Shown piece by piece: positions 1,945-63,152 of a stretch of 64,000 nucleotides of DNA. Source of the stretch: Thiomicrospira sp. (lineage in GTDB: Bacteria > Pseudomonadota > Gammaproteobacteria > Thiomicrospirales > Thiomicrospiraceae); the NCBI GenBank assembly GCA_034005865.1, contig JAVETW010000004.1, forward strand, positions 669-64,668. Direction: 5' to 3'. The translations under genes were made by a program, and so were the position numbers. Within the stretch, counting starts at the first letter, position 1. Every line of letters begins with the position of its first letter. The notes beneath the pieces were generated by a model. It searched no databases, had not been told where the DNA came from, and saw nothing but the letters and a program-made list of their open reading frames with translations.

Positions 1945-1969
1945 CGGTGATTACCAGGCCTGCTAGAAT

Positions 1970-2156
1970 CTGTTGATCATTCTTTTTTAACCACAGAGAT
2001 ACGAAGGTGCGAAGTTATTTAAGCGCGGTTTCAAGTATTAAGTCATTGGGTTTTGAAGATGTTTGTTTTTGTCAAACGTTTTGGCTGAACAATAAATGGA
2101 TTCAGCGATTAACTAGAACTTGACTTATCAATTAGTTACGGCGAATTGTCAACAAG
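1970..2156 (+). mobile_element. MITE-like element, copy 1 (about 187 bp)
   Basis: The left end is CTGTTGATCATTC...AACCACAGAGATACGAAGG and the right end is GAATTGTCAACAA, forming a terminal inverted repeat. The internal core CGTTTTGGCTGAACAATAAATGGATTCA is shared with the copies at 9452, 12172 and 52452. Confidence 0.6.
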
Positions 2157-2193
2157 CTATAGCCAAGTGAAGCAAGTGGAATGAGGGTGAGAT

Positions 2194-3621
2194 ATGTCGA
2201 TTCGTAGCAAGCTGGTGGCGTTATTATTGGGGTTTGGCTTTTTAATTTTGGGCGTGTTTTTGTGGAGCAATCAGTATGTATTGCATACCACGATTTTGCA
2301 CTATGTCGATCAGCGCGATCAGCAGCGTTTAGAGCGTCTTAAAAATAATCTCGAAGTTTATCTAAGTGACTATGCCGACTCGGTGAATGAGCCGATATCT
2401 TCATCGGTGTGGTTGGCGTTATTGCGTTTATCTAATCGTATTGACTTAACCCAACAAACGGTGCAAATGGATAGGGTTTTACGCCGTTTTGGTCAACCAA
2501 ATAATCGTTTGGATGAGTTTGAGCAACGCGTGAGTTTGCTTGGGTTGGATGGTGCAACACAGAGGGGCGCGGCGGCACAAAATTTTACGCGTGTGCTGGA
2601 CGTATTGTATAACGGTCAGGTGGTGCTGCGCTTGGGGTATAGGCCGCTTGATGCGTTGACCGAGCAAGCGGATATTGAGTTTGCGCAGTGGCAAAGCAAA
2701 ATACTGTTTGGCGGTGCACTGTTTATTTTACTGTTAAGCCTGGTGTTGTTGTGGCCGTTGCATTATCAATTATTGGCACCAATGCGACGTTTATCCGAAG
2801 GCTTAAAACGCTTGTCTCTAGGCGATTTTAATGTGCGTTTGGCGGCCACGCGCCAAGACGAGTTCGGCACATTAGAGCAACATTTTAATCATTTAGCGCA
2901 AAGTTTGGCGCAGGTTGAAGCCGGACGCAGCCAGTGGGTCGCCGATACCTCACATGAGTTGCGTACACCGATTACGGTATTGCGTAGTTCTATCGAGTCC
3001 ATGCTAGAGGGCGTGCGCCCAACGACGACCCAAAACCTACAGGCCGTGTACGACGAAGTTTTAGTGTTAAATCGGCTGGTCGAAGATTTGCATCAGTTGA
3101 ATAAGTATCATGTCGGCAATCTGCAATACCAGATGGTGCGACTGGATTGGCGCGCACTGATTCAGCAAGCGCTGGAAACGCAACGCGGCTTAATCGAAGC
3201 GAAAGGCTTGACCTTGACGATTAGCTTACCCTCCACGGCGGCTTGGGTATTGGGTGATGCGGTGCGGCTGCATCAGTTGATGCATAATATTTTGCATAAT
3301 GCCTTGACCTATACCGATGCACAGCAGGCCGACGCGTGTGCCGGTGTGATTTCAATTGTATTGACGGAGCAAGACCAGGCCTGGCAGCTCAAGGTGTGTG
3401 ACTCTGCGCCCGGTGTTTCAACCGACGAGCTGGCGCAGTTGAGTGCGCGTTTTTATCGTGCCGAAAGTTCACGCAATCGGCGTTTTGGTGGGGCGGGTTT
3501 AGGTTTGGCGATTAGCCGACAAATTGTGCAAGCCCATCAGGGAAGCATGGCATTCGCGCCCTCTCATTTGGGTGGTTTGTGCGTGATAATATCCTTACCT
3601 AAGCGCCATGAAGGGGTTTAA
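2194..3621 (+). CDS. sensor histidine kinase (HAMP-HisKA-HATPase; BaeS/CpxA-like)
   Basis: It has an N-terminal TM segment, a HAMP domain (LAPMRRLSEGLKRLSLGDFNVRL), an H-box (SHELRTPIT) and a G2 box (GGAGLGLAISRQIV). Confidence 0.9.
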   Translation: MSIRSKLVALLLGFGFLILGVFLWSNQYVLHTTILHYVDQRDQQRLERLKNNLEVYLSDYADSVNEPISSSVWLALLRLSNRIDLTQQTVQMDRVLRRFGQPNNRLDEFEQRVSLLGLDGATQRGAAAQNFTRVLDVLYNGQVVLRLGYRPLDALTEQADIEFAQWQSKILFGGALFILLLSLVLLWPLHYQLLAPMRRLSEGLKRLSLGDFNVRLAATRQDEFGTLEQHFNHLAQSLAQVEAGRSQWVADTSHELRTPITVLRSSIESMLEGVRPTTTQNLQAVYDEVLVLNRLVEDLHQLNKYHVGNLQYQMVRLDWRALIQQALETQRGLIEAKGLTLTISLPSTAAWVLGDAVRLHQLMHNILHNALTYTDAQQADACAGVISIVLTEQDQAWQLKVCDSAPGVSTDELAQLSARFYRAESSRNRRFGGAGLGLAISRQIVQAHQGSMAFAPSHLGGLCVIISLPKRHEGV

Positions 3622-3648
3622 TCAAGCGCGCAAATTCAGGAGATGAGT

Positions 3649-5367: not shown

Positions 5368-6075
5368 ATGGAAAAAACGCAACAACAAATTTTGCGCCAT
5401 CATGGCGGCGACGGTGATCATGCGCGCACGATGATTACTCAAACCTATGCGGCGCGACATGATGAAGCTTTTTGGCAATACTGGCAAACCTGGTGTCACG
5501 GTTGTATTGCGCCGCAGGATGTGTTGCTGGATTTGGGCGCGGGCACCGGGTTATTTGTACAAGACTTATCACAGGCTTATCCACAGGCCAAAGTGATTGG
5601 TATTGAGGCCGCGCCTTACATGCTTGAGGCCTTGGTTAGTCTGCCGTCGAATGGCGAAGTGCTCGCGGATGATTTAAATCAACCTTGTGTTGCAATCCCT
5701 GAAAACACGGCGGCTGTAGCCATGTGTAATATGGTTGTACACGAACTGATGCAACCGATTTTAATGTTTAAATCGGTGTTTAATTGGTTAAAGCCCGGTG
5801 GACGGTTTTGTGTTATAGACCTTGTTCGTCAACCCTTGTCCCAGTATTTATCACATCGTTATCCACAGCTTGATTCCTGGCAGAATGCGCCTTCTCGTGA
5901 GGAGCTTGAAGAGGTGTTTGAGCATTTTTATGAACACAATCGTTATCATGCTGAAGACTTGATATTTATGTTGGAATCGGTCGGATTTCGACTTGTCGAA
6001 CAAAGCGTATTAAAAAATGGTCGCATGGTGCGGTTACTGGCAGAAAAACCAAGAGGTGCGAATGTTACAGTTTAA
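5368..6075 (+). CDS. class I SAM-dependent methyltransferase
   Basis: Motif I is VLLDLGAGTGLF, with the post-I/II pattern VIGIE. ATG 5368 follows AGAGGG. Confidence 0.8.
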   Translation: MEKTQQQILRHHGGDGDHARTMITQTYAARHDEAFWQYWQTWCHGCIAPQDVLLDLGAGTGLFVQDLSQAYPQAKVIGIEAAPYMLEALVSLPSNGEVLADDLNQPCVAIPENTAAVAMCNMVVHELMQPILMFKSVFNWLKPGGRFCVIDLVRQPLSQYLSHRYPQLDSWQNAPSREELEEVFEHFYEHNRYHAEDLIFMLESVGFRLVEQSVLKNGRMVRLLAEKPRGANVTV

Positions 6076-7237
6076 CGGCTTCGAGTTTGCTGCCACGCCG
6101 ACCTTGTATGTTGGTTGGGGCGTAGTGGAGCGTCAATTGGCGACACAATTACGTCAATTCAAGGCGAGACGCATTATGTTGGTGACCGGTCGCCATGTGG
6201 CTGAACGCGCTTGTCGTTATCTTGCCCCTTTGAATGGCGTACACCATGTGATTGTGCAAGGCGAACCGACCGTCGCTTTGATTGATAAATTGGTCACGAA
6301 TGCCCCGCAGGATATTGACCTGGTGGTCGGTATCGGCGGTGGCAGTGTGTTGGATGCCGCTAAAGCCATAGCAGGCCTGCTACCCGAGCGTTATTCTGTG
6401 TTGGATTATTTGGAGGGGGTGGGCTGTGGTCGCACGTTACAACAGCCACCGGTTGCGTTTATCGCTGTACCGACGACCGCCGGAACGGGTTCGGAAACCA
6501 CCAAAAATGCGGTTATTTCCGAGCCGGGACGGTTTAAGAAGTCGTTTCGTGATGCGCGTTTAGTCGCTTACCAGGCCTGGTTAGATCCTTCTTGGCTTGA
6601 GGATTGTCCCGCTTCGGTGTTGTATCCGACGGCGATGGATGCGCTGACGCAGTTAATTGAGTCTTACGTGACTTTAAAAGCCAATCCGATGACCGATGCG
6701 CTGGCTTGGCAAGGCATGGTATTGTTTCAAGGTGCATTGGCGGCGTTGGATGGCGATGACGAGGCGCAAAAACAGCAGGCTTTTGCGAACTTAATGTTAG
6801 CGGCAAGCTTGTCGGGCATCACCCTAGCGAACGCCGGTTTGGGGGCGGTGCATGGGTTGGCCGGACCGATTGGTGCCTTTTTTGATGCGCCGCATGGGGT
6901 TGTGTGCGCCAGGCTGCTGGCACCGATTACGCGAGAAAATATTCAGGCGCTGCGTGCGCAAAGCGGACAAGAGGCCGTATTGCGTAAATATGGCGCTATC
7001 GCACGCTTGTTGCGCGCAGAGCCGACTGAGGCGGCTTATGCGGATGATGCAGAAAGTTTAATTGATGAGTTGGAACGCTTAACGCAACGTTATGTGACAC
7101 AAGGATTGGCGGCATATGGGCTAACGGCGCAGAATGTGGCGCTGGTGATTGGACATTGTCGTGCGGGGAGTATGCTGGGTAATCCGTTGGTGTTGCCCGA
7201 TGAGGCGCTGTTGCGTGCGCTTATCGCGGCACTATAA
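6062..7237 (+). CDS. iron-containing (group III) alcohol dehydrogenase family protein
   Basis: It carries GIGGGSVLDAAKAIAG, AVPTTAGTGSE and a His-rich C-terminal metal site (GAVHGLAGP, APHGV). It overlaps the upstream methyltransferase gene by 14 nt. Confidence 0.85.
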   Translation: MLQFNGFEFAATPTLYVGWGVVERQLATQLRQFKARRIMLVTGRHVAERACRYLAPLNGVHHVIVQGEPTVALIDKLVTNAPQDIDLVVGIGGGSVLDAAKAIAGLLPERYSVLDYLEGVGCGRTLQQPPVAFIAVPTTAGTGSETTKNAVISEPGRFKKSFRDARLVAYQAWLDPSWLEDCPASVLYPTAMDALTQLIESYVTLKANPMTDALAWQGMVLFQGALAALDGDDEAQKQQAFANLMLAASLSGITLANAGLGAVHGLAGPIGAFFDAPHGVVCARLLAPITRENIQALRAQSGQEAVLRKYGAIARLLRAEPTEAAYADDAESLIDELERLTQRYVTQGLAAYGLTAQNVALVIGHCRAGSMLGNPLVLPDEALLRALIAAL

Positions 7238-7353
7238 TGAGCAGGCCTGCTAATCGGGTGGCTTTCATTTTGCACCACGAAGAAACGAAATGTGCGCGAT
7301 TCGAGCGTCAGCTTTGGCTAGGCCGATGTTCGGCCTTTGGGGGTTGTTGTGGG

Positions 7354-9350: not shown

Positions 9351-9451
9351 CGCCAAAGGCGTTTGGCGGCGGTGCTAAACGATGGCGTTTATTCACCGCT
9401 TAGTCAGCGCGCGTTGTGGTGTGAGGTTCGTTTGAGCGAAGCAACGAGGAA

Positions 9452-9623
9452 CTGTTGACGATTCATTTTTGAACCACAGAGACATGAAGATGCGAAGTTT
9501 TTAAGTGTTAAGTCGTTGATTTTTATAGGTGTTTTTTTATCCATCGTTTTGGCTGAACGATAAATGGATTCAAAGGTTCACTAAAACCGGATTTGTTAAT
9601 CAGTTACAACGAATTCTCAACAG
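9452..9623 (+). mobile_element. MITE-like element, copy 2
   Basis: CTGTTGACGATTCATTTTTGAACCACAGAGACATGAAG ... GAATTCTCAACAG. It ends 18 nt before the ATG at 9642. Confidence 0.6.
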
Positions 9624-12557: not shown

Positions 12558-15500
12558 ATGCGAAATAATGGGCCGGTAACACAACAACAGATTTCGATTC
12601 CGGAGCACTATATTCTTAGTACCAGTACCAATTTACAGGGAACGATTTTATCCGCGTCGGAGGATTTTCTAAAAATCAGCGGTTACTGTCGTGAAGAGAT
12701 GATTGGGCAGCCGCATAATCTATTACGCCACCCCGATGTGCCGTCGGCGGTGTTCGCCGATATGTGGCAGACGTTAAAAGCTGGTAAAAGCTGGACCGGC
12801 ATTGTGAAAAATCGCGCGAAGAACGGCGATTTTTATTGGGTGCAAGCAAATGCGTCGCCGATTGAAGAAAACGGGCAAGTGGTGGGCTATATTTCGGTTA
12901 TAACGCCTGCCAGCGCTGAACAGATCGCCGAGGCGGAGCGTTTGTATGCGGATGTGGCGCAGGGGCGGTCTGTGCTTTGGCAAGGTGTGGCGCTGACCAA
13001 CGCGCAAGCGCGTTGGCAGCGTTTTAGCTTAAAGGGCGGCTTGAGTGTCACGTTATTGAGTTATTCGGCGTTGATTTTGGTGCTGGGGTTGTCGTTGTTG
13101 GGCGCGGTGTTTTATCAAGCACAAATTGCGCCGATTGTAGAGCAGGAGTTGGCGCGGGAGGTGACCCAAGCGCAAGCACAAATTCGCGCTCCGATCGCAT
13201 CAAAGGCGATGTCAGCGGCGGATATTGCGGCTACAGCAGCGATGATGCCGGAAATAAAACAAGCTTTAGCAGGCCTGGTGCCGCGTAGTGTTGCTGAGCA
13301 ACGCTTGGCTGAGGTGCAGGCACATTTTGCCAAAATCACCGATTATAAAAATATTCGTTTTCAGTTATACGATCGTGATCGGCGTTCGTTTATGCGTTCG
13401 TGGGCGTTAGCGGAATTTGGTGATAGTCATGTGGATAGAATTCGTGATCGCGCCTTTGAAGAAAAGCGAGTGATTGGGGATTTATCGATTCATAAAAACG
13501 GCTTTGGGGTTGGCGCTACCGGTTATGCGCCGGTGTTTTATGGCGAAGAGCTGGTGGGGGTGATTTCTGCTTCCGGCGGTGTCGGCTCAATCGTGCGCGA
13601 ACTTAAGACCCATGGAACGGATTGGGTGATGGTGATTGATCAGTCGGTGTATGGCGATAAAATGCCTCCGACCCTAGCGAAGAACACGCCGTTTCGTTCA
13701 GGCTATGTGCTAGCGCATAATCGTTGGTTTGATGAAAAAGCCGTGGCGTATTTAAGTGCGCAGATGCCGACCTTGTTACAAGGAGAGGCGGCGCAGGCGT
13801 ATTTTGTCGGTGAGCAAATTTTAATTGATATTCCGGCGTATAACCCGGTGGGTGAGGTGATTGGCCGTCATTTAATTGTGAAATCGGCGCAGGCGATACA
13901 TGATCAAATTGCGCAGGCGCGCGAACAGGTGGTGATGTCGTTGCTCGGCGTGGTGGCGGTAGTGGTAGTAATTATACTGATTTTGCTCGCCTTGATTACA
14001 ACACGGGTGATTTCGCCGTTAAAACGTTTGTCGGCCTCGATGAGCAATATGGTGAAAACCGGGCGTTTTAATGACCGTGTGGTGCGTCTGGATAATGGCG
14101 ATGAAATTAGTCAAATCGCGAATGCGTATAACCAGTTTGCCGGTAATGTGCAACGCGTGATTACCAATGTGAATGATGTGATGTCGTCAGTGGCACAGGG
14201 GCAGTTTAACGTGGCGGTGACCGACAGTTTACAGGGCGATTTGGCGGTGATGAAAGACGCAGTAAACGGCTCGGTGTTGAGTGTGCGCGATACGATGCAA
14301 GCACTCGAGGTGGTGATGGAAGCCTTGTATCATGGCGATTTTAGTGCGCGTATGCCCGACTCGATAAAAGGCGAATTCCGCGAAAAAGTGGATCAAGCGG
14401 TGGCGGCGTTGAAACTGACCATTGATGATGTCAACGGCGTGATGAACTATATGAGCGAGGGTAAGTTCCAGCATCGAATCGAGTCCGATGCGCGTGGTGA
14501 CTTATTACAGTTAAAACAAACGGTGAATCAGTCGATGGACGCACTCGAAAGTGCGATTAAAGAGATTACCGAAGTCAACGTGGCCATGTCGCAAGGGGAT
14601 TTAACCCATTTAATTCATGGCGATTATCACGGTGAATTGCGCTTGTTAAAAGAAGCGGTCAATTCGTCGATTATGCGTTTGGAGGGAATCGTGTCAGTGG
14701 TGGTGGAGGCGACGCGCGTGGTCGAAGGCGCATCGGCGGAAGTTTCGCATGGGTCGCATGATTTGAGTGATCGCGTGCAACGTCAGGCGGCGGCGATTGA
14801 GCAAACGTCGGCGACGATGGATGAAATGAATTCGACGATTCAACACAATACGCAAAACGCGAATCAGGCGGCCGAGTTGGCGAGTAATGTGCAAACGCAA
14901 ATTGTGCAGGGGTCGCAAGTAATGACGCAAACCATTGAGGCTATGGCGGAAATCCAAAAATCCAGCCATAAAATTGCCGATATTGTGACCCTAATTGACA
15001 GTATCGCGTTCCAGACCAATTTGCTGGCGTTGAATGCGGCGGTAGAAGCGGCGCGCGCCGGTGATCATGGGCGTGGCTTTGCCGTGGTGGCGGGTGAAGT
15101 GCGTTCGTTGGCGCAGAAGTCGGCGGACGCGGCGCGTGATATTAAAGCATTGATTGAAGAAAGTGTGACACGCATTGATCAAGGCACCAAATTGGCCGGA
15201 GAGTCCGGGCAGGTGTTAAACGGCATTACCGATTCGATTCATCAGGTAACCGATATGGTGAATCAAATTTCGAAAGCGTCGAATGAGCAAGCGGCAGGGA
15301 TTCATCAGGTGCATGAAGCGATTAATAATATCGACCAAATGACGCAACAAAATGCGGCATTGGTTGAGGAAACCACGGCGGCATCGGAAAGCATGAGCGA
15401 GCAGGCAAAAAACCTTGCGCAAGAAATGGCGTTCTTTAAAACCCATGGTACGGCGGCGCAAGCGCAGAAAATGCTTGCGCCTAAGCGTCCGGCGGCTAAA

Positions 15501-15609: not shown

Positions 15610-15945
15610 GTTTAGCAGGTGTATCTTGGTAGGGCTCAGCTCAGGCTGTCGAGTGGCGTGCCGCTTAATCGTGACGTTGTCGAGGCGTTGTTTATTCACC
15701 GTTTGCTTATCTGGTTTTTGCAGGCCTGCTAATTCATCGTATGCCATAAATCGCGTTATGGATAACGTCAAGAAAACTTAATTGTAAATTGGATTTTATT
15801 GTGCAAATATGTCCAAACGTGTGTGTTAAATGCTGCGTGTTCTGCGCGTGAAAAAACACTTTTTGTGTGATGTGTTAATAGTACAAATAAGAAGTGCGCT
15901 TAGCTTGTGCTAAAGACGCCTAAAAAATAAAGCGATGAGGATGTT

Positions 15946-18805: not shown

Positions 18806-18954
18806 ATGCCTACGTGTTCGCACTTATTGCAGGCCTGCTAATAAACGAGATGTGGGTTTTTAATAAAAAGAGTTGATAGGCTTTGTTGTTTTTATGTTTT
18901 GTAAACAAGTTATAATTAAAAATTAATTTTTTGAACACATTAAAGAGGATGGCT

Positions 18955-21305: not shown

Positions 21306-21581
21306 GCCTACGGATTGGGTTGTTCTGCTGTAAAGCTGATGCGAGGCCGCGCGTTGGGTGTGTTACATACGTGGGTGAAAAAAGTAAACTTAGTGCAAAA
21401 AGTTGTCTTTGTTTATATCGGTGTTTAGTTTGCTTAAATAGGTCTAAAAATCCCCTTATGTACCCATAGAAAATTTGTGGTCGCAATTTGTGCTGAATCG
21501 CGCATGATATGCGAGATAAAATCAAGTTTGGTTTAATGCTTGCTAGTCGAGCGCGAGTTAATAAAAAAACACGGTGTGCTT

Positions 21582-41434: not shown

Positions 41435-43336
<1,902 letters not shown>

Positions 43337-43768: not shown

Positions 43769-43875
43769 AAAAGCAGGTTAAACAAGGCTGGGGTAAATGT
43801 CAAGTCGATGCTGGCGGGGCGGGGTACACCAAGGTGTTTGAGCGAATCCCCGTGCACAGTGAGCCGTGACTAAGG

Positions 43876-45411: not shown

Positions 45412-45441
45412 GGACGCTATTTTACAGGGAGTGGTAACAAA

Positions 45442-49488: not shown

Positions 49489-50785
49489 CCCGCTGGCGCA
49501 AAGCGCCGTGGCATTTTATTTACAGCAAGCGCAGCCGTTAATCGATGCTTCGCGTGATTTGCCGTTAGGGGCCTTTCGTCAATCGGTAGCGGAGCGTTTT
49601 GCACAGCAGGGGTTTCCAACGCGCCGTGATGAGGATTGGAAATACACGCCGTTGAATGCGTTTTTGCAAACACATTATCGCTTGTCCGGCGTTGCAAGCA
49701 TTGACTTTGCTCAGGTTAAGCGTTTTTTGCCGCCGTTTGCGGTGATGCACTTGGTGTTTGTTGATGGTTATTTTAGCGAAACCTTTTCCGACGATTTAGG
49801 CGCACTGCCTGAGGGATTGACGATTGAATCAGTGAAGGATGCGCTGGATTTTGTTTCTGGTCATCAGGCGCTGATGTCACATGAGTCCCAAGTCGAGGCC
49901 GAACCATTCGGCTGCCTGAACAGTTTGATGTTTGATGACGGGGTGCTGATTCAGCTGGAGCAAAATTGTATTTTAGATCGGCCGGTATTGTGCACTTATT
50001 TACAGACCCAAAGCGAGCACGCGAACACGACACGTAATCGTATTGTGTTGGCCGAAGGCGCGCAAATGACGCTGATTGAGCAGTATGTTAGCTTGAGTGA
50101 TGAATTGAATGCGTTTAATAACGTGGTCAGTGAAGTCGAGTTAGCGCAATCGGCGCAGTTGGATCAGGTGGTATTGCAGGCGATTGCGCACTCAGGGATG
50201 CACTTTGGCTTGCAGTTTGTTGAACAAGCGACGCAATCGCGCTTTAGTTCGCATTATGTCGGTTTGGGCGCGGCGATTTCGCGTCATCAAAATACACTGT
50301 ATATGCGGGGTGAGCACGTTGAATCGGCGCAGTTTAGTGCTTGTTTGGCGCAAGGAAATCAGGTGATGGATACGCGCACCCATACCCAGCATCAGGCCTG
50401 CTGGGGCGTGAGTCGGCAGCTGCATAAGTTGGTGCTGGATGATCAGGCAACCGGTGTATTCAACGGTATGATTCACGTTGCACGCGGTGCGCAGAAAACC
50501 GATGGCTTGATGGATAATAAAAATCTATTGTTGTCGAAGCAAGCGCAAGTAGACAGTAAACCGCAATTAGAAATTTATGCCGATGATGTCAAGTGTTCGC
50601 ATGGGTCAGCATCTGGTCAAATCAGCGATGAGCAGATTTTTTATTTGCGCGCGCGCGGTATTGCTGAGCAGGATGCTCGTCGTTTAGTGACGCAGGCGTT
50701 CTTGCTTGAGCCGCTGGAGTCGATTAGTTCGGCGCCGGTGCGCGATTGGTTAGCAGGCAAGTTAGTTCAAAAACTCAATCGATAA
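49454..50785 (+). CDS. sufD: Fe-S cluster assembly protein SufD
   Basis: The C-terminal block is KPQLEIYADDVKCSHGSASGQI...FYLRARGI. It overlaps sufC by 35 nt if the ATG at 49454 is used. Confidence 0.85.
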   Translation: MTTLSKPTKKPSPLAQSAVAFYLQQAQPLIDASRDLPLGAFRQSVAERFAQQGFPTRRDEDWKYTPLNAFLQTHYRLSGVASIDFAQVKRFLPPFAVMHLVFVDGYFSETFSDDLGALPEGLTIESVKDALDFVSGHQALMSHESQVEAEPFGCLNSLMFDDGVLIQLEQNCILDRPVLCTYLQTQSEHANTTRNRIVLAEGAQMTLIEQYVSLSDELNAFNNVVSEVELAQSAQLDQVVLQAIAHSGMHFGLQFVEQATQSRFSSHYVGLGAAISRHQNTLYMRGEHVESAQFSACLAQGNQVMDTRTHTQHQACWGVSRQLHKLVLDDQATGVFNGMIHVARGAQKTDGLMDNKNLLLSKQAQVDSKPQLEIYADDVKCSHGSASGQISDEQIFYLRARGIAEQDARRLVTQAFLLEPLESISSAPVRDWLAGKLVQKLNR

Positions 50786-50859: not shown

Positions 50860-52077
50860 ATGTTGGATCATGCGGCGCTGCGTGCGCAATTCCCGATTTT
50901 ACAGCTCACTGAAAACGGCCACCCCTTGGTTTATTTGGATAATGCCTCTACGTCGCAAAAACCCCAGTGTGTCATTGAGGCGGTAGCGCGTTATTATGCG
51001 CAACAAAACGCGAATGTGCATCGCGGCGTATATGGCCTTAGCGAGCGCGGTACGCAAGCGTTTGAAGCGGTGCGCGATCAGATTAAAGAGTTGCTGAATG
51101 CCGCGCAGCGTGAGGAAATTATTTTTGTGCGCGGGGCAACCGAGGGTATTAATCTCATCGCCCAAAGTTGGGGGTGTGCGAATTTGCAGGCTGGCGATGA
51201 AGTGATTGTGTCGGAAATGGAGCATCATTCTAATCTTGTGCCTTGGCAGATGCTGCGCGATATCTTGGGTATTAAGCTGGTGAAATGGCCAATTAATGCG
51301 CAAGGCGAAGTGGCGTTAAGCACATTAGCAGGCCTGCTAAATGCGCGAACCAAACTGGTTTGCGTGACGCAAATGTCGAATGCACTAGGGACGATTAACC
51401 CGATTGCTGAGATTGTGGAGTTGGCGCATCAGTATGGGGCGAAGGTACTGGTCGATGGCGCGCAGTCGGTGTCGCATATGGCGGTGGATGTGCAAGCATT
51501 GGATGTGGATTTTTTGGTGTTTTCCGGTCATAAAATGTATGCACCGACCGGTATTGGCTGTGTGTATGGAAAGCGCGCGCTGCTGGAGATGATGCCGCCT
51601 TATCAGGGCGGAGGCGATATGATTTATAAGGTGAGTTTTGAGCACACTGAATACAATCAGCTTCCTTATAAGTTTGAGGCCGGTACGCCAAATATTGCTG
51701 GCGTGATAGGGTTGGGCGAGGCGATACGGTTTATCACATCAGTCGGTTTTGAACGTATCGCTAATATTGAACAGGATTTATTGAATTATGCGACCGAGCA
51801 GCTTGGTCAAATTGACGGTTTGCGTATTATTGGTACAGCGGCACACAAAGGCGCCGTGGTGTCGTTTGTAATCGACGGGGCGCATCCGCATGATCTAGCA
51901 ACGCTGTTGGACCAAGATGGTGTGGCGGTTCGTGCCAGTCATCATTGCGCAATGCCGGTAATGCAGCGCTTTAATGTACCGGCCACGGTGCGTGCGTCGT
52001 TTGGGGTGTATAACACGCGTGAGGATATCGATCGACTGCTTGTTTCTGTGCAGGACGCGCTCGATATGTTACGCTAG
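50860..52077 (+). CDS. sufS: cysteine desulfurase SufS
   Basis: HHSNLVPWQ, SGHKMYAPTGIG (PLP lysine) and RASHHCAMP (active-site Cys). Confidence 0.9.
   Translation: MLDHAALRAQFPILQLTENGHPLVYLDNASTSQKPQCVIEAVARYYAQQNANVHRGVYGLSERGTQAFEAVRDQIKELLNAAQREEIIFVRGATEGINLIAQSWGCANLQAGDEVIVSEMEHHSNLVPWQMLRDILGIKLVKWPINAQGEVALSTLAGLLNARTKLVCVTQMSNALGTINPIAEIVELAHQYGAKVLVDGAQSVSHMAVDVQALDVDFLVFSGHKMYAPTGIGCVYGKRALLEMMPPYQGGGDMIYKVSFEHTEYNQLPYKFEAGTPNIAGVIGLGEAIRFITSVGFERIANIEQDLLNYATEQLGQIDGLRIIGTAAHKGAVVSFVIDGAHPHDLATLLDQDGVAVRASHHCAMPVMQRFNVPATVRASFGVYNTREDIDRLLVSVQDALDMLR
51325..51340. repeat. 16-bp perfect palindrome TTAGCAGGCCTGCTAA inside sufS
   Basis: Read directly from the sequence. It encodes LAGLL. 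Confidence 0.9.
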
Positions 52078-54518: not shown

Positions 54519-55414
54519 ATTTTGGTAAGGTTGCGGTGTTGATGGGGGGCGTGGCCGCCGAGCGTGAAGTGTCGTTGCGTAGCGGACGAGCGGTGGAACA
54601 GGCGTTGCTTAACGCCGGCGTGGATGCGAAAGCGATTGATGTGACCGATTTGTCACAATTAGTCGAAGTGAGTCGTTTGTATGATCGCGCATTTATTGCA
54701 TTGCATGGTCGCTGGGGAGAAGACGGACAAGTACAGGCGATTTTACAATCGTTAAATATGCCGTTTACCGGTAGTGGCATGGCGGCTTCAGCCTTGGCGA
54801 TGGATAAGTTGCGCACCAAATGGCTTTGGCGCGGTGCGGGTTTGCCTACGCCTAATTTCAACGTGGTGAGCCGTTATCAACCCTTGTCGGTGCAGGACTT
54901 TGCGTTAGATTTTCCGCTGATGGTGAAGCCTTGTCACGAAGGTTCAAGCATCGGGATGCGTAAGGTTCATGATTGGGCTGCTTTAGAGGCGGCGGTGGCT
55001 TATGCACAAGAGTTTGACGATGAGGTGTTGATTGAGCAGTGGATTGAGGGGCGCGAGTTTACCGTTGGCTTTGTTGATGGACAGCTTTTGCCAACTATTG
55101 AGCTAAAAACCACCCATGAGTTTTATGATTATTCGGCGAAATATCAAGCTAACGATACGCAGTATCTGTGTCCGTGTGAGATTGATGCGGCTTTGCAAGC
55201 GCAACTAAATGATTTAACCCGCCGAGGTTTTGAGGTGCTCGGTGCGCGCGGCTGGGGTCGGATGGATTTTATGGTCGATGCTAATCAGCAGGCCTGGTTA
55301 ATTGAGTTGAATACGGTACCGGGTATGACTGATCATAGTTTGGTGCCAAAAGCGGCGAGGGTGGCAGGTATGTCGTTTGAGCAGTTGGTTGTGCGTATTT
55401 TAAGCGCAACATGA
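54515..55414 (+). CDS. ddl: D-alanine--D-alanine ligase
   Basis: KVAVLMGG.AAEREVSL.SG, HGR.GEDG, ELNT.PGMT. It has an ATGA overlap with murC. Confidence 0.9.
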   Translation: MNFGKVAVLMGGVAAEREVSLRSGRAVEQALLNAGVDAKAIDVTDLSQLVEVSRLYDRAFIALHGRWGEDGQVQAILQSLNMPFTGSGMAASALAMDKLRTKWLWRGAGLPTPNFNVVSRYQPLSVQDFALDFPLMVKPCHEGSSIGMRKVHDWAALEAAVAYAQEFDDEVLIEQWIEGREFTVGFVDGQLLPTIELKTTHEFYDYSAKYQANDTQYLCPCEIDAALQAQLNDLTRRGFEVLGARGWGRMDFMVDANQQAWLIELNTVPGMTDHSLVPKAARVAGMSFEQLVVRILSAT

Positions 55415-56121: not shown

Positions 56122-56145
56122 TGCAGATTTAAAGTAGAGAAGGGT

Positions 56146-57441: not shown

Positions 57442-58353
57442 GTGAAGCAAAGAACCCTTGCCAACCCCATTAAAGCGAAAGGCGTTGGCTTACATACCGG
57501 TCATGAAGCCTTAATGACCTTGCGTCCTGCCCCGGTGAATACCGGTATTGTATTTCGTCGTATAGATGTCGAACCCTATGTATGTTTTCCGGTAAGCCCG
57601 GAAATTGTCGGTGAAACCACTTTGTGTACTACGATTGTGAGTGAAGGTAAAAAAATCGCGACCATTGAGCATTTAATGTCGGCGTTGGCCGGGGTGGGCA
57701 TGGATAATCTGTATATTGATATTAATGCCGATGAAGTGCCGATTATGGACGGCAGTGCTTCGCATTTTATCTTTTTATTACAAGCCGCCGGTATTGCTTT
57801 TCAAGATGCGCCTAAGCGTTTTATTCGGATTAAAAAACCAATACGTGTGGAAAATACCTTGGGTGGCTGGGCGGAGTTTAAACCTTATTCCGGTTATCGG
57901 TTAAATTTCTCCATTCGTTTTGATCATCCGGCATTTAAACAAACCGCCGAAAAAATGACCCTTGACTTTTCTTCGACCTCGTATTTTAAAGAAGTCAGTC
58001 GTGCGCGTACTTTTGGCTTTATGCGCGATATGGAAATGCTGCGTTCGCAACGTCTTGCCTTGGGAGCGAGTTTAGATAACGCCATTGGTTTGGATGAAAC
58101 CGGGGTCATGAACAAGGGCGGCTTACGTAATAAAGATGAGTTTGTTCGCCATAAAATTTTGGACGCAGTTGGTGATTTATTTATGGCCGGCCATGCCATT
58201 ATTGGTGAATTTAGTGCGCATAAGTCGGGTCATGCGTTAAATAATCAGTTGTTACGCTCGTTATTTCAAACTCCGGATGCGTTTGAATTGGTGGATGCGG
58301 ATCAGTTGGAGCAGATTCCTATCGACTTCAGCAGTAGTAAGGTTTTGTTTTAA
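57442..58353 (+). CDS. lpxC: UDP-3-O-acyl-N-acetylglucosamine deacetylase
   Basis: MKQRTL...GVGLHTG, TIEHLMSAL, HKILDA.GDL. It has a GTG start after AAGAGAG. Confidence 0.95.
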   Translation: MKQRTLANPIKAKGVGLHTGHEALMTLRPAPVNTGIVFRRIDVEPYVCFPVSPEIVGETTLCTTIVSEGKKIATIEHLMSALAGVGMDNLYIDINADEVPIMDGSASHFIFLLQAAGIAFQDAPKRFIRIKKPIRVENTLGGWAEFKPYSGYRLNFSIRFDHPAFKQTAEKMTLDFSSTSYFKEVSRARTFGFMRDMEMLRSQRLALGASLDNAIGLDETGVMNKGGLRNKDEFVRHKILDAVGDLFMAGHAIIGEFSAHKSGHALNNQLLRSLFQTPDAFELVDADQLEQIPIDFSSSKVLF

Positions 58354-58778
58354 TCCGTTGAATTTTCTGCGTGGCGGCTGAGTTTAATGAGCGCTTGCGC
58401 CAGTTTGTCGGACTTGACCTGCTGGCTTAGTGCTTGCATTGCTTGCGCAGCGGCTCGGCTCGGTGGCGCGATCGGACGCTTGTTGGTTGTTTCGTTGCTG
58501 ACGACAGGGCGAACGCGAAATTTGATTTGCGTTAAGTGCAGGTGCGGCAGTTGTTGACGAAACGTATGCAATAAAGGTTGTTCAAAATAGCGGAGTTTGC
58601 TGGCCCAGTGTGCATCGCTCGTTAAGCAAATTAAGCAGGCCTGCTCAATAGTGACAGCGGTTAAATAGGGTTTGAGTTGATCGGGCAGGGTGCTGTGTGC
58701 AAGCTCAAGTAACGCTTGGTATTGTTGTGCTTGTTGCACTAATTTCATTAAGCCCGGTTGTTGCAGTGGATGGAACAT
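58350..58778 (-). CDS. dciA: DUF721/DciA-like protein (putative replicative-helicase operator)
   Basis: It is 142 aa with the pattern LTAVTIEQACLICLTSDAHWASKLRYFEQPLL...IKFRVRP, typical of DUF721. It occupies the lpxC-secA interval, as I remember for pseudomonads. Confidence 0.5.
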   Translation of the reverse strand: MFHPLQQPGLMKLVQQAQQYQALLELAHSTLPDQLKPYLTAVTIEQACLICLTSDAHWASKLRYFEQPLLHTFRQQLPHLHLTQIKFRVRPVVSNETTNKRPIAPPSRAAAQAMQALSQQVKSDKLAQALIKLSRHAENSTD

Positions 58779-58918: not shown

Positions 58919-61630
58919 ATGTTTTCAAGTATTTTTAAAAAGATTTTCGGTAGTCGTAACGAACGTTTGTTAAAGCAATATAAAAAGCGTGTCGCACAAA
59001 TTAACGCATTTGAGCCTGCGCTGGAGGCTTTGTCTGATGCACAACTGCGTGATAAAACGCAGGCCTTTAAACAGGCGCTGGCCGAAGGAAAAACACTTGA
59101 TGATCTATTGCCCGAAGCGTTTGCGGTAGTGCGTGAAGCCGGTAAGCGCGTATTTGGTATGCGTCATTATGATGTGCAAATGATCGGTGGTATGGCGTTG
59201 CATGACGGGCGCATTGCTGAAATGCGAACGGGTGAGGGTAAAACCCTTGTGGCAACCTTGCCGGCTTATCTGAACGCGCTCGCCGCCAATGGGGTTCACG
59301 TGATTACGGTGAATGATTATTTGGCAAAACGTGATGCCGAATGGATGGGGCGACTGTTTGAATTCTTAGGATTATCGACCGGGGTTATTTTGAGCGGTCA
59401 AAGTCATCAAGAAAAACAGTTGGCCTACGCGATGGATATTACCTACGGTACCAACAACGAATTCGGCTTTGATTATTTGCGCGACAACATGGCGATTTTT
59501 AAAGAAGAAAAGGTGATGCGTGGTCAGTTTTTTGCCATCGTTGACGAGGTGGATTCTATTTTGATCGATGAGGCGCGTACGCCGTTAATTATCTCCGGTC
59601 CGGCGGATAATAAAGCGGAAATTTATCATAAAATTAATCCGCTGATTGCTCGCTTGGAGAGGGGGGAAGAAGATCAGGTTGAAAAAACCACCACCGGCGA
59701 TTACACGGTGGATGAAAAAGCGCGCCAAGTGTATTTAACCGAAGAAGGTCATGAAAAAATTGAAGCGATGTTGGTTGAGGTCGGCCTGCTTAATGAAGGC
59801 GATAGTTTGTATGACGCGGTGAACATTGGCTTGATGATTCACGTTAATGCGGCTTTACGGGCGAATGTGTTGTTTGAGCGTAATAAAGATTATATCGTTG
59901 AGAACGGCGAAGTGGTGATTATCGACGAACACACCGGGCGTAAAATGGTCGGCCGTCGTTGGGGGGAGGGCCTACATCAAGCCGTAGAAGCAAAAGAAGG
60001 CGTGAATATTCAGCACGAAAGCCAAACCTTTGCCTCGATTACTTTCCAAAATTATTTCCGTCAATATCAAAAACTGTCCGGCATGACCGGTACCGCTGAT
60101 ACCGAAGCCGGTGAATTTTTATCGACCTACAAGTTAGAAGTGGTGGTGATTCCGCCGAATAAAACACCGTTACGTCAGGACTTAACCGACTTAGTGTTTT
60201 TGGATATCGAAAGCAAATTCAAAGCGATTGTTGAAGATGTTCAACAAACCCATGCCACAGGGCAACCGATTTTGGTTGGAACGGCGTCGATTGAGATGTC
60301 GGAATTGTTGTCGTCGTTGTTTACCCGCGCCAAAATTAAGCACGAGGTGCTTAATGCGAAACAGCATGAGCGTGAAGCGCATATTATTGCCAATGCAGGT
60401 ATGCCGGGGGCGGTGACCATTGCGACTAATATGGCCGGACGCGGAACGGATATTGTGTTGGGGGGGAATCTTGAAGCCGAAATCGATAGTCTTGGCGAGC
60501 ATTCCAGTGCCGAGCAAGTGGCAAAGGTGAAAGCCGATTGGCAAGTACGCCATGATCAAGTATTGGCGTTGGGTGGGTTGAAAGTGATCGGTTCAGAACG
60601 CCACGAGTCACGTCGTATCGACAATCAATTACGCGGGCGTTCCGGTCGTCAAGGTGATCCGGGGGTGACACGTTTTTACTTGTCGTTGGACGATGATTTA
60701 ATGCGTCGTTTTGCCTCGGATCGGGTGAAAAGTATGATGCGTCGTCTAGGTATGAAAGAGGGCGAGTCGATTGAACATCCGATGGTGAGTAAGTCGATTG
60801 AGCGTGCGCAGAAGCAGGTGGAGCGTTTACATCAAGACGAACGTGCGAATTTGTTGAAGTTTGACGATATTGCCAACGAGCAGCGTAAAGTGGTGTATCA
60901 ACAGCGTAATGAGTTAATGGAGAGCGAGGAAGTGCGCGAAACCATTCGTTTGATGCGTGATGACGTGGTGAATGAGGTTATCGACCAGTACATTATGCCG
61001 GGCAGTTTAGATGAGCAATGGCGAGTAGCAGAACTAGAAACCGCGTTGCATGAAGAGTTTGGTGTCACTGTGCCGGTACAGGCCTGGTTAGACGCGGATA
61101 AGGGCTTGTACGAGGAGCCGTTGCGCGCGAAAATTGTCGAGGCGGTTGAGCAAGTTTATAACGACAAAATGGCAGTGGTGGATGAGCGTACCCTGGGTCA
61201 TTTTGAAAAAGAAGTGTTGTTGCGTAATATCGATAAGCTCTGGCGCGAGCATTTGGCGGAAATGGATTATTTGCGTCGCGGTATTCATTTGCGTGGCTTT
61301 GCGCAGAAGGATCCTTTCCAAGAATACCGTCGTGAATCGGCATTATTGTTCCAAGTGTTTTTAACCGAAGTGAAACGTGAAACGATTAAAATGTTATCGT
61401 TAGTGCAGTTGCACAGTCAGCAGGATGTCGCTGATTTTGAGGCGCAACAACAAGCGGAAGCGGCGCAAAAACTCGATGCGATTCATCCTGATGCCGATGC
61501 TGATCGTGATGATGAAGCCAAGCAAGATAGCTCGACTTTCCGTCGTGATATGCCGAAAGTGGGGCGTAATGATCCGTGTCCTTGCGGTTCGGGTAAAAAA
61601 TACAAACAGTGTTGCGGTAAGTTAGATTAA
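58919..61630 (+). CDS. secA: preprotein translocase ATPase SecA
   Basis: It is 903 aa with [29 protein letters not shown] and a C-terminal zinc motif [14 protein letters not shown]. Confidence 0.97.
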
Positions 61631-61705
61631 TTGATTAGACTTCTTGCAAAACTCAAGCACGGCGGCTTACCAAGTTGTGAAACGGGGAAAGAATGCATGA
61701 AAATT

Positions 61706-61796
61706 TACCACAGAGACACCAAGGCACGAAGATTGTTAAAACAAAGAAGTTGAAACGTTAAACATCTTCGTGTTCTTCGTGACCTTCGTGGTTTAA
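61706..61796. repeat. CACGAAG-module hairpin repeat
   Basis: TACCACAGAGACACCAAGGCACGAAG...CATCTTCGTGTTCTTCGTGACCTTCGTGGTTT, with three 9-nt units. Confidence 0.7.
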
Positions 61797-61928
61797 AACA
61801 ACCGATTTGCACAACTAATTTGCGTCAGCGGGGTGCAGTAATAAACGCTTTCACAGACAATATAACGCGCTAATCGTGTCATCGTAAAACCATCTATCAT
61901 TCATTTATTTTTTGCGCAGAGGTGTGCT

Positions 61929-63152
61929 ATGCCAGTGGGTCTTTCAAACGAATTGCCGGTGATTCATCCGGTAGCCGGTGCGTATTTAGGCGCGACGGCA
62001 GCTAAAATCAAAAAGAACGGAAAAACCGATTTAGTGGTGATTGAGTTTGTCGAGGGCAGTGTCACCGCCGCGACGTTTACCACTAATGCCTGCTGTGCCG
62101 CGCCGGTGACGGTGGCGAAACAACACCTGGCAAAAGCACAGCCGCGCGCGCTATTGATTAACAGTGGGAATGCGAATGCCGCTACCGGTGAACCAGGCCT
62201 GCTAAATGCTCGTCAAAGCTGTGAATGGCTGGCGGCAGAACTCGGTTGTAAAACTGAAGAAATCCTACCTTTTTCAACCGGCGTGATAGGCGAACCCTTG
62301 CCGATGCAAAAAATTCAAGCGGGTTTACCAGATGCCCTAGCCAATCGCAAAATTGACGGCTGGGCGCAGGCGATGGCCGGTATTATGACCACCGATATCG
62401 TGCCGAAAATGGTCAGTCGTGTGGTGAAAATTGACGGCCATGATGTCACTATTACCGGTATGGCAAAAGGTTCGGGCATGATTCATCCGAATATGGCCAC
62501 TATGTTGGGTTATGTGGTGACTGATGCCAAAATTACCGCCGAATTGTTGGATGTGTGTCTGAAAAATGCGGTCAAACGGTCATTTAACCGCATTACGGTG
62601 GATGGCGACACCTCCACCAACGATGCTTGCACCCTAACCGCGACTCAGCAAGCGGATATGCCGACCATCACCGAGTTTAATAGTGCCGCCTATCAACAAT
62701 TCAGCGCTGAGATTTTAGATGTGATGACGATTCTAGCGCAGATGATTGTGCGTGACGGCGAAGGCGCAACCAAGTTTATCGCCGTTGAAGTCAATGGCGG
62801 CCAAAATGAAGAAGAATGTCTAAAAGTGGCGCATGCGGTCGCGTTATCGCCGTTGGTTAAAACGGCGATGTTTGCCTCCGATCCTAACTGGGGTCGTATT
62901 TTGGCGGCGGTGGGACGTGCAGGCCTGGTCGATTTGGATATTAATAAACTGCAAATTTTCTTGGGCGATGCGTGTATCGTGCGTAACGGCGGCCGCGCGG
63001 CTGACTACACCGAAGACCAAGGTCAGGCGGTGATGAAGCAAGAAGAGATTCACGTGCGCATCGAACTGAATCGTGGCACGGCATCAGAAACCGTGTGGAC
63101 CTGCGACTTCTCGTACGATTACGTTAAAATTAACGCCGAATATCGGTCTTAA
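61929..63152 (+). CDS. argJ: bifunctional ornithine acetyltransferase / N-acetylglutamate synthase
   Basis: KGSGMIHPNMATMLGYVVTDA (autoprocessing site ATML) and C-terminal DFSYDYVKINAEYRS. Confidence 0.95.
   Translation: MPVGLSNELPVIHPVAGAYLGATAAKIKKNGKTDLVVIEFVEGSVTAATFTTNACCAAPVTVAKQHLAKAQPRALLINSGNANAATGEPGLLNARQSCEWLAAELGCKTEEILPFSTGVIGEPLPMQKIQAGLPDALANRKIDGWAQAMAGIMTTDIVPKMVSRVVKIDGHDVTITGMAKGSGMIHPNMATMLGYVVTDAKITAELLDVCLKNAVKRSFNRITVDGDTSTNDACTLTATQQADMPTITEFNSAAYQQFSAEILDVMTILAQMIVRDGEGATKFIAVEVNGGQNEEECLKVAHAVALSPLVKTAMFASDPNWGRILAAVGRAGLVDLDINKLQIFLGDACIVRNGGRAADYTEDQGQAVMKQEEIHVRIELNRGTASETVWTCDFSYDYVKINAEYRS

Follow-up and report, generated by a model that had tools for sequence, protein, structure and literature searches.

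A hyper-abundant palindromic octamer in Thiomicrospira DNA with features of highly iterated palindromes and of DNA uptake sequences

What accounts for the many copies of a single 8-bp perfect palindrome, CAGGCCTG, in a 64-kb stretch of a metagenome-assembled genome (MAG) of Thiomicrospira sp. (this whole stretch is called the window), where it occurs in genes as well as between them? The host, a sulfur-oxidizing bacterium, belongs to Thiomicrospira in the Gammaproteobacteria, as judged from SecA and Rep. The SecA protein of the window was 99% identical to that of Thiomicrospira sp. MAGs, 87% to that of T. pelophila, 85% to that of T. microaerophila, 79% to that of T. aerophila AL3 and about 75% to that of Thiomicrorhabdus, and the Rep protein showed 100% identity with MDY0135750.1, which is encoded by a Thiomicrospira sp. 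MAG. All genes of the window are of the housekeeping type.

Thirty exact copies of the octamer were present in the window. An earlier note on this DNA had listed 29; it overlooked the copy at 1634-1641 and gave the copy at 62194 as 62204, and its remaining coordinates were correct. The excess that it claimed held against two kinds of null: dinucleotide-preserving shuffles contained a mean of 0.51 copies with a maximum of 2, and Markov models of orders 0 to 3 predicted 0.5 to 0.9 copies. The density of 0.47 per kb and the observed-to-expected ratio (O/E) of about 35 to 60 lie above the values by which a highly iterated palindrome (HIP) is recognized, which are at least 0.2 per kb and a more than about 10-fold excess. 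Markov models of orders 5 and 6, which predicted 12.6 to 25.7 copies, were dropped as a null; they come near the observed count only through sub-words of the motif itself, which enter into such models. Nearly all of the commonest 8-, 10- and 12-mers of the window were derived from CAGGCCTG. Loci of about 20 kb around secA and rep were taken from relatives for comparison and are designated by an L and a number. The scan of contigs for SecA gave relatives of at most 75% identity among the matches listed, and closer relatives were reached via homologues. The pooled Thiomicrospira loci (241 kb) contained 116 copies, compared with 3.7 expected. The excess of CAGGCCTG is real, robust and clade-wide.

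The enrichment was sharply limited to the perfect octamer. Variants with one mismatch occurred in 0 to 4 copies each in the window, which is background, and in 2 to 17 copies per class in the 241-kb pool, where 3 to 9 were expected. In total, the pool contained 69 one-off copies against 66 expected, beside the 116 perfect copies. The twelve one-off classes were near expectation with the exception of the C-to-T product CAGGCTTG/CAAGCCTG, found 17 times against 7.6 expected; a second deamination-type class, CAGGTCTG/CAGACCTG, was found 7 times against 3.2. As the one-off variants are at background, all eight positions must be read. AGGCCT outside the octamer occurred 11 times in the window, where about 14 copies were expected according to a rough estimate from base composition. 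In both the window and the pool AGGCCT outside the octamer was at expectation and GGCC at or slightly below it, so that the recognized or enriched unit comprises at least the full 8 bp. The second commonest context of AGGCCT in the pool was AAGGCCTT, found 10 times (in L086, L087 and others), which is maybe a weak secondary palindrome.

Among the relatives, every Thiomicrospira locus of at least about 12 kb (L081-L083, L085-L090, L092 and L094) contained the motif at 0.2 to 0.8 copies per kb. It was the top palindromic octamer of the motif-rich loci, or joint-top or second in a few. The loci of Thiomicrorhabdus chilensis (L003), of the MAGs L002, L004 and L008 and of a Thiosulfatimonas MAG (L011) were likewise rich in the motif. 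No copy was found in the sampled loci of Thiomicrorhabdus marina (L007), Thiomicrorhabdus sp. 6S3-12 (L015), the MAGs L001 and L005 and Hydrogenovibrio (L010), and relatives with zero copies included some of similar GC content and with similar proteins. About 60 other proteobacterial loci had the octamer at background. A substitute hyper-abundant octamer was sought in the loci of the motif-less relatives, and none was found there; patchy presence with no substitute fits an optional specificity such as uptake bias. Three to four copies in 5 to 12 kb were seen in the viral or prophage contigs L137 and L152 (IMG/VR, isolate genomes 2517287021 and 2788499856) and L100, which perhaps represent prophages from motif-rich hosts. 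When IMG/VR was scanned with 14- and 16-mers, the matches were single and near-random and no phage had a host-like density; these scans are uninformative on phage avoidance.

Twenty of the window copies were located in genes (the 19 of the earlier note, including the thiS copy at 39973, and the one at 1634) and ten between genes, as had been claimed. Synonymous-codon shuffling within genes yielded 1.71 +/- 1.26 copies (maximum of 6 in 500 shuffles), compared with 19 observed in that gene set. Of the 20 AGL tripeptides 8 were encoded by GCA-GGC-CTG, where 0.22 were expected, and the tripeptide QAW was about 5 times commoner than predicted from the amino-acid composition. On this evidence the motif is imposed on the proteins and is not a product of them. 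Codon or amino-acid bias, which the earlier note had itself named as the explanation to be checked, does therefore not account for the excess. The note's observation that only two reading frames are used was also correct: xCA-GGC-CTG (A/P-G-L) was used 12 times and CAG-GCC-TGS (Q-A-W/C) 8 times, while the frame C-AGG-CCT-G was used by none of the 20 gene copies in the window. This third frame would require the rare codon AGG, which makes up 2.4% of the Arg codons.

Codon alignments of eleven genes from up to 18 genomes, a comparison that the earlier note had proposed, showed that the sites arose by point substitution, often at the cost of an amino-acid change. Motif and non-motif alleles were collinear and 1 to 4 substitutions apart, with no insertion at any aligned site. 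In the block from suf to argJ all seven window sites differed in amino acid from most or all of the motif-less relatives; examples are the replacement of QPWLIE by QAWLIE in ddl, of H-N-x-x by H-Q-A-C/W in sufD and of GRAGV by GRAGL in argJ. Parallel gain at the same codons in separate lineages was seen in sufS and secA. The synonymous codons that overlap the motif were identical to those of L086 in 15 of 15 cases (background 59%, p = 4e-4), to those of L083 in 16 of 17 (background 64%, p = 0.006) and to those of T. pelophila in 13 of 15 (background 48%, p = 0.002). Established sites are thus retained while neighboring synonymous positions turn over. In secA of L081, opposite window positions 61060-61095, a 36-nt patch differed from the window at 12 positions, while the sequences on either side of it were identical over more than 100 bases; at this position L083 and L086 resembled the window. 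The patch has the appearance of a very short tract of gene conversion placed exactly over the motif site.

The copies in genes are listed below with the gene, its strand where given (+ or -) and the peptide frame. The gene at 40394-41431 was called thiO in the earlier note; it is presumably thiO, and the name serves here as a label only. The Rep protein of L094 was 92% identical to that of the window.

1634-1641: CAGGCCTG in an amino-acid-kinase gene (955-1869, +), frame A-G-L
3376-3383: CAGGCCTG in a histidine-kinase gene (2194-3621, +), frame Q-A-W
6372-6379: CAGGCCTG within the 12-mer AGCAGGCCTGCT in a gene resembling those of iron-containing alcohol dehydrogenases (Fe-ADH-like gene, 6017-7237, +), frame A-G-L; orthologous position in L094 without the motif
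6572-6579: CAGGCCTG in the same Fe-ADH-like gene (6017-7237, +), frame Q-A-W; kept at the orthologous position in L094
13270-13277: CAGGCCTG in a large gene resembling those of methyl-accepting chemotaxis proteins (12558-15563, +), frame A-G-L; hybrid flanks G..G
31433-31440: CAGGCCTG in the rep helicase gene (30637-32676, +), frame P-G-L; orthologous position motif-free in L092 and L094 (CCGGGTCTG, CCTGGCTTG)
36289-36306: 18-bp perfect palindrome with its core at 36294-36301 in thiD (35850-36752, -), frame A-G-L
39458-39465: CAGGCCTG in thiG (38683-39480, -), frame Q-A-W
39973-39980: CAGGCCTG in thiS (39838-40059, -; product end ...MQGG), frame A-G-L
40975-40992: 18-bp perfect palindrome with its core at 40980-40987 in the thiO-like gene (40394-41431, -), frame Q-A-W
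41186-41193: CAGGCCTG, second copy in the thiO-like gene, frame P-G-L
41384-41391: CAGGCCTG, third copy in the thiO-like gene, frame A-G-L
45749-45756: CAGGCCTG in a znuA-like gene (45403-46353, +), frame A-G-L; orthologous site in L092 TTACCAGGCCTGGTTA, with the other flank type
50393-50400: CAGGCCTG in sufD, frame Q-A-C; kept in L081, L083, L086, L088 and L085, and H-N-x-x in motif-less outgroups
51325-51340: 16-bp palindrome TTAGCAGGCCTGCTAA with its core at 51329-51336 in sufS, L-A-G-L-L; same codons in L086 with both flanks flipped (TTACCAGGCCTGGTAA)
55289-55296: CAGGCCTG in ddl, frame Q-A-W, in place of the QPWLIE kept by most motif-less relatives
58636-58643: CAGGCCTG in a dciA-like gene (58350-58778, -), frame Q-A-C; only in the window, L081 and L083
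61079-61086: CAGGCCTG in secA, frame Q-A-W; in the window, L086 and L090, replaced by CAGGCTTG in L083 and by the 36-nt divergent patch in L081
62194-62201: CAGGCCTG in argJ, frame P-G-L; kept in L081, L083, L086, L085 and L089
62920-62927: CAGGCCTG in argJ, frame A-G-L; GRAGV here in most relatives outside the clade

The density of the motif was about 3.6 times higher between genes (1.29 per kb) than within them (0.36 per kb). Half of the ten intergenic copies were located no more than 25 nt past a stop codon (binomial p = 0.012), in agreement with the proximity to stop codons pointed out in the earlier note. The copies were spaced more evenly than random: the coefficient of variation of the gaps was 0.76 in the window (p = 0.08), and with 11 loci pooled p was 0.004. 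Orthology of intergenic copies could be checked at short distance only, as synteny around rep is broken in L092 and L094, and L095, with an identity of 98.4%, is too close. The intergenic copies are the following.

1955-1962: CAGGCCTG within the 12-mer ACCAGGCCTGCT, 86 nt past the stop of 955-1869
7242-7249: CAGGCCTG, 5 nt past the stop of 6017-7237, with convergent genes on either side
15721-15728: CAGGCCTG, 158 nt past the stop of 12558-15563
18830-18837: CAGGCCTG between 18159-18713 and 18931-21252
23850-23857: CAGGCCTG, 22 nt past the stop of 21540-23828; the one-off CAGGCCTA in L095 (98.4% identical)
24281-24296: 16-bp perfect palindrome TAACCAGGCCTGGTTA with its core at 24285-24292, 2 nt past the stop of a DEAD-helicase gene (24294-25538, -)
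28038-28069: 32-bp perfect palindrome with its core at 28050-28057, 20 nt past the stop of a DnaJ-like gene (27083-28030)
28500-28515: 16-bp perfect palindrome TTAGCAGGCCTGCTAA with its core at 28504-28511, 6 nt past the stop of a gene at 28517-29101 (-)
33278-33299: 22-bp perfect palindrome with its core at 33285-33292, upstream of a ribbon-helix-helix (RHH)/PemK toxin-antitoxin pair (33293-34035)
43590-43597: CAGGCCTG in a thiC-like leader, between a thiamine pyrophosphate (TPP) riboswitch aptamer (43662-43771, -) and the start codon at 43324

The TPP riboswitch aptamer at 43662-43771 (-) matched Rfam RF00059 with 78 bits, and the copy at 43590 lies where its expression platform would be.

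The bases around the octamer were also far from random. Twenty-eight of the 30 window copies had G or C on both sides, and the perfect palindromes of 16, 18, 22 and 32 bp described in the earlier note were each confirmed at their positions. Its hybrid sequence AACCAGGCCTGCTAA exists as well, at 62191-62205 and not at 62201-62215. Nineteen window sites matched the exact 12-mer ASCAGGCCTGST (A-S-CAGGCCTG-S-T), of which 0.01 were expected. The flanks of 119 copies, from related loci as well as from the window, were tabulated. In the 56 intergenic half-sites position -1 was G or C in 53, position -2 was A in 50 and position -4 was T in 38, which gives the fuller consensus T-N-A-S-CAGGCCTG-S-T-N-A. 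The note had distinguished a small set of half-site families; the sequences themselves were observed, but they do not form a separate set, because the single consensus T-N-A-S-CAGG, the constraints of the two coding frames and a lineage-specific preference for G or C account for them. TTAG-CAGG is barred from the Q-A-W frame, in which its TAG would be read as a stop codon, and AAC-CAGG or CAC-CAGG is found there instead. Covariation of the two bases at +/-1 was considered and rejected: the window alone gave 20 symmetric and 8 hybrid sites, but with the lineages separated z was 1.65, which is not significant.

In ten of the 30 window copies palindromy did not extend beyond the 8-mer. The flanks at -3 to -6 were complementary in 233 cases compared with 198 in within-locus shuffles (p <= 0.0005), so that some of the sites, most of them intergenic, form part of real hairpins. 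For the 32-bp palindrome (28038-28069) a hairpin of -29.2 kcal/mol (z = -4.9) was predicted, which has no T-tract. Most window copies folded no better than shuffled sequence and had no T-tract, and textbook terminator shapes with T-tracts, e.g., aaaaaccgacCAGGCCTGgtcggttttt, were found in L008 and L011.

The choice of flank varied with lineage. Flanks of the C..G type (CCAGGCCTGG) prevailed in L086/L092 (21 of 28) and L094 (14 of 15) and likewise in L085, L088, L089, L008 and L011. Flanks of the G..C type prevailed in the window, L083 and L002, and L081 agreed with the window at the sites that both have. Of six orthologous sites, four differed between the window clade and L086/L088/L085 in the flank bases only; the changes were C to G on the left (T at one site) and G to C on the right, and they cost A/P, L/V or C/W replacements. 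Outside the motif, CCWGG was depleted in precisely the G..C lineages, with O/E values of 0.41, 0.41, 0.43 and 0.25, compared with 0.64 to 1.10 elsewhere. The simplest reading of these sequences is that position +/-1 accepts either G or C and that pressure against CCWGG, e.g., a CCWGG-specific restriction, would drive the loss of CC..GG. With a core common to Thiomicrospira and part of Thiomicrorhabdus and Thiosulfatimonas and a flank that varies with lineage, the motif may have dialects like those of DNA uptake sequences (DUS); however, the shift of the flank tracks the depletion of CCWGG, and several related lineages are free of the motif. Depletion of CCWGG (O/E 0.25 to 0.43) was seen in the window, L081, L083, L095 and L002 and not in sister lineages, and depletion of GCWGC (O/E 0.35 to 0.56) in L086/L092, L088/L094, L085 and L083. 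This suggests that closely related strains have, or once had, different restriction systems.

As an octamer CAGGCCTG is not new: the earlier note knew of no description of it, but in Synechococcus sp. PCC 6312 it is known as the alternative HIP, with 0.37 copies per kb and an O/E of 14.7 (Xu et al. 2018, PMC5861425), and the same octamer of this strain is also mentioned in a preprint (bioRxiv 10.64898/2026.06.24.733823). A literature search found no description of CAGGCCTG for Thiomicrospira or any proteobacterium, and its occurrence in the Gammaproteobacteria appears to be unreported. The two cases share the identical octamer, a similar density (0.37 per kb in PCC 6312 and 0.47 per kb in the window) and its rank as the dominant palindromic octamer. 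They differ in that PCC 6312 is a cyanobacterium, in the O/E (14.7 against about 35 to 60 in the window) and in that conservation, flanks and coding effects have been shown for Thiomicrospira only, none of them having been assessed for PCC 6312, for which there was no comparison genome. According to Elhai (2015), each cyanobacterium in which an alternative sequence is over-represented also has a methyltransferase to match, and his model links HIP-type motifs with cognate methyltransferases and with a ratchet of methylation-guided repair; CAGGCCTG is not mentioned in that article, although its citation in the preprint implies that it is.

HIP1 (GCGATCGC; variants GGGATCCC and TCGATCGA) is likewise a GC-rich palindromic octamer, which occurs at 0.2 to 2.7 copies per kb in coding and non-coding DNA. 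Its conservation beyond neutral expectation, non-random spacing and patchy phylogenetic loss are all shared by the Thiomicrospira motif, whose copies are genic and intergenic, overlap conserved codons and are non-randomly spaced (pooled p = 0.004). Unlike CAGGCCTG, HIP1 includes the sites GATC and CGATCG and is accompanied by methyltransferases that recognize these. A cyanobacterial host is lacking here, and no cognate methyltransferase in the same genome, as described by Elhai (2015), was found in the motif-rich T. pelophila DSM 1534. The one-off variants of HIP1 are, according to PMC4390886, biased to the outer positions, whereas the outer one-offs of CAGGCCTG are at background. A structural role has been proposed for HIP1 on a similar kind of evidence (Xu et al. 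2018, PMC5861425), and a recent preprint argues that HIP1 may itself be an uptake sequence. If HIP1 is an uptake signal, the HIP and uptake-sequence classes may be one.

The DUS of the Neisseriaceae (GCCGTCTGAA) and the uptake signal sequences (USS) of the Pasteurellaceae (AAGTGCGGT) are 9 to 12 bp long and occur at about 0.5 to 1 copy per kb in genes and intergenic regions. They give rise to frame-restricted common peptides, distort the proteome, form hairpins behind genes and are shared with variation among related species. CAGGCCTG resembles them in chromosomal density, frame bias, peptide effects, enrichment past stop codons with hairpin forms and perhaps lineage-specific flank variation, the terminators with T-tracts being restricted to some relatives. 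It differs from them in being palindromic, so that one copy serves both orientations, in being all-or-none among related genera, whereas DUS and USS are universal with dialects, and in having no abundance of one-mismatch variants. The HIP1-like or uptake-like behavior described in the earlier note was thus borne out as regards hyper-abundance, location in genes and at gene ends, peptide distortion and extended dyad flanks, with codon bias excluded. Chi sequences have a strand polarity and exceed expectation no more than a few-fold; CAGGCCTG is neither asymmetric nor polar because it is a perfect palindrome. Bhagwat and McClelland are said to have described in 1992 the signatures of very-short-patch repair around CCWGG in E. 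coli. There, as perhaps in the CCWGG depletion of the G..C lineages, a short palindrome is the target of repair or restriction, which alters the frequencies of oligonucleotides, but this would account for the choice of flanking base only and not for the excess of the octamer.

The specificity, the costly substitutions, the maintenance of synonymous codons, the enrichment past stop codons and in hairpins, the even spacing and the all-or-none distribution point to a protein reader and to genome-wide drive or selection. CAGGCCTG would accordingly be a genome-wide recognition sequence for a putative sequence-specific DNA-binding protein with a sharp specificity of at least 8 bp and probably 12 bp. 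Among the known classes, DNA uptake sequences fit most features and are preferred, and the putative reader would then be an uptake receptor, with biased uptake and recombination as the drive. That the octamer is such a protein-read self-marker of the DUS/HIP class, spread by biased uptake and recombination, is proposed tentatively and rated at somewhat less than an even chance. A putative competence-associated surface receptor would prefer double-stranded DNA carrying the motif, so that motif-bearing fragments would be taken up and recombined more often. Alleles gaining the motif by point mutation would be over-transmitted, and alleles losing it would be replaced. The motif would accumulate wherever it is tolerated, in genes in the two frames A/P-G-L and Q-A-W/C, and between genes especially just past stop codons, where it could also tip a hairpin. 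The end state would be about one motif per 2 kb, spaced more evenly than random. The further claim that Thiomicrospira and part of its family are a third group with a DNA uptake sequence, after the Neisseriaceae and Pasteurellaceae, and the first with a palindromic signal, is doubtful. Several points weigh against an uptake signal. Known uptake sequences are non-palindromic and their genomes are rich in one-off variants, and those of CAGGCCTG are at background in the 241-kb pool. Data on uptake or transformation in Thiomicrospira were not found in the searchable literature, and no competence gene or candidate receptor was found among the 20 window proteins scanned with Pfam. A dimeric receptor alone does not account for the complementarity of the flanks beyond the half-site consensus. 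A horizontally mobile enzyme specificity would account for the identical cyanobacterial octamer more readily than would the convergence of two unrelated receptors; with independent origins the identity would be a coincidence of roughly 1-2% (rough estimate), which favors a shared or transferable determinant.

A determinant of this kind would be offered by HIP-type methylation with biased mismatch repair (Elhai's ratchet or a Vsr-like activity), in which a methyltransferase would mark the motif or its inner GGCC or AGGCCT, methylation-guided repair would convert near-cognates, and the same mobile enzyme pair would explain the octamer of PCC 6312. Methyltransferase specificities move horizontally, which suits the enrichment of one octamer in a distant phylum, and to this can be added the matching methyltransferases reported for cyanobacteria (Elhai 2015), the scarcity of one-offs relative to perfect copies (69 against 116), as an efficient ratchet would give, and the fact that CCAGGCCTGG consists of two abutting CCWGG sites. 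However, T. pelophila DSM 1534, the genome of L085, has the motif at about 30 times expectation and a single REBASE-annotated methyltransferase, a Type I enzyme forming N6-methyladenine (m6A) in GARAN6GTT (Blow et al. 2016, tables S1, S3 and S4). Only GARAN6GTT and no cytosine motif was methylated in that species at 210x single-molecule real-time (SMRT) sequencing (Blow et al. 2016); as SMRT sequencing of native DNA is insensitive to 5-methylcytosine, the argument draws mainly on the gene inventory of one species. A system specific for GGCC or AGGCCT would enrich those sites, yet neither is enriched outside the octamer, and the deamination-type one-offs are the most abundant, opposite to what repair of T:G to C:G predicts. 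The Pfam scan of the 20 window proteins detected no DNA methyltransferase, Vsr, restriction enzyme or competence protein. The methylome and gene inventory of T. pelophila weaken the link to a GGCC or AGGCCT methyltransferase suggested in the earlier note, and the ratchet is considered quite unlikely. An array of binding sites for a cytoplasmic chromosome protein, either a nucleoid-structuring or condensin-loading factor or an orientation-free Chi-like signal for self or repair, is unlikely as well. The dyad consensus of 12 to 16 bp is typical of a dimeric DNA-binding protein, and even spacing, conserved sites, the structural role proposed for HIP1 (Xu et al. 2018) and the short conversion patch exactly over the secA site in L081 would agree with it. 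The absence of motif and substitute from close relatives would be odd for core chromosome maintenance, the motif is symmetric and 30 to 60 times over-represented, unlike Chi, and a candidate protein was not found.

The remaining explanations concern the DNA or RNA itself. If the motif primarily tipped hairpins that terminate transcription or stabilize the 3' ends of mRNA, with the genic copies as by-products, the position of half of the intergenic copies past stop codons, the flank complementarity at -3 to -6, the folding of the 32-bp palindrome at -29 kcal/mol and the terminators of L008 and L011 would all fit. Such hairpins need no particular octamer, however, and leave the amino-acid replacements in conserved proteins unexplained; two thirds of the copies are genic, ten of 30 are palindromes of only 8 bp, too short for a stable hairpin, and most window hairpins are no better than shuffled sequence and have no T-tract. 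A hairpin role as the primary cause is already disfavored and very improbable. High copy number, palindromic structure and longer palindromes between genes are also properties of mobile elements such as repetitive extragenic palindromic (REP) sequences, bacterial interspersed mosaic elements (BIME) and miniature inverted-repeat transposable elements (MITE), and REP and BIME are numerous and sometimes located behind genes. REPs are 20 to 40 nt long, strictly extragenic and mobilized by REP-associated tyrosine transposases (RAYT), whereas 20 of the 30 copies of CAGGCCTG are in housekeeping genes and were born by substitution; with no insertions or deletions in the codon alignments, insertion of a REP- or MITE-like miniature element is refuted for the genic copies and can hardly be entertained overall. 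The two frames and recurring peptides might suggest an artefact of composition, codon usage or amino-acid sequence. This explanation has virtually no probability left and is already refuted by the shuffles (0.5), the Markov models of orders 0 to 3 (fewer than 1) and the codon shuffles (1.7 against 19), as well as by the ten intergenic copies and by the lack of any copy in relatives of similar GC content and proteins.

The function of such motifs, and of HIP in particular, has been disputed for 30 years. To our knowledge, uptake-sequence-like and HIP-like motifs are rare and each confined to one clade; the Thiomicrospira motif appears to be an addition to this class in a phylum where it seems unreported. 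A proteobacterial lineage that shares a cyanobacterial octamer is an independent natural replicate. The occurrence of close relatives with and without the motif allows phylogenetic profiling for the gene responsible, and presence or absence among sequenced relatives makes the search for the reader protein tractable. The T. pelophila methylome without cytosine methylation separates the motif from the methyltransferase hypothesis. If the motif is an uptake signal, HIP palindromes and uptake sequences would be tied into one class, and the identity with the cyanobacterial octamer would imply either that a recognition module has moved between phyla or that receptors are under a strong physical constraint. 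In practice, efficient genetic manipulation of these chemolithoautotrophs may require donor DNA that carries the motif, and in metagenomes their DNA can be binned with the motif as a simple tag.

Some further features of the window and the loci were noted. The toxin-antitoxin pair at 33293-34035, with an RHH antitoxin and a PemK(MazF)-type toxin, lies downstream of rep. PemK-type modules were also located downstream of rep in L094 and L095, that of L095 having another partner and lying on the other strand, and gene order around rep was otherwise rearranged among close relatives (L092, L094). A second dispersed intergenic repeat of about 40 to 60 nt with the core (TTGACR-N6-8-)TTTTTGAACCACAGAGACAYGAAGRCACGAAGGTT occurred in both orientations, often beside gene starts or ends, at the following window positions.

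9443-9497, 12186, 24174-24200, 39505, 39817, 40055 and 40241: TTTTTGAACCACAGAGACAYGAAGRCACGAAGGTT repeat
40382, 43347, 43495, 52593, 52826 and 61707: TTTTTGAACCACAGAGACAYGAAGRCACGAAGGTT repeat, continued

The TTTTTGAACCACAGAGACAYGAAGRCACGAAGGTT repeat also matched between the window and L095 and is possibly a promoter-bearing or REP-like element. Long poly-C runs (CCCCCCCC, 9 and 33 times) in the MAG contigs L001 and L012 are probably assembly artefacts at contig ends. The GC skew of the window was very strong and kept one sign, with values of about +0.1 to +0.24 in most bins of 4 kb, and fell to about 0 only at minus-strand genes (28-32 kb and 36-44 kb); it therefore tracks the coding strand as much as replication.

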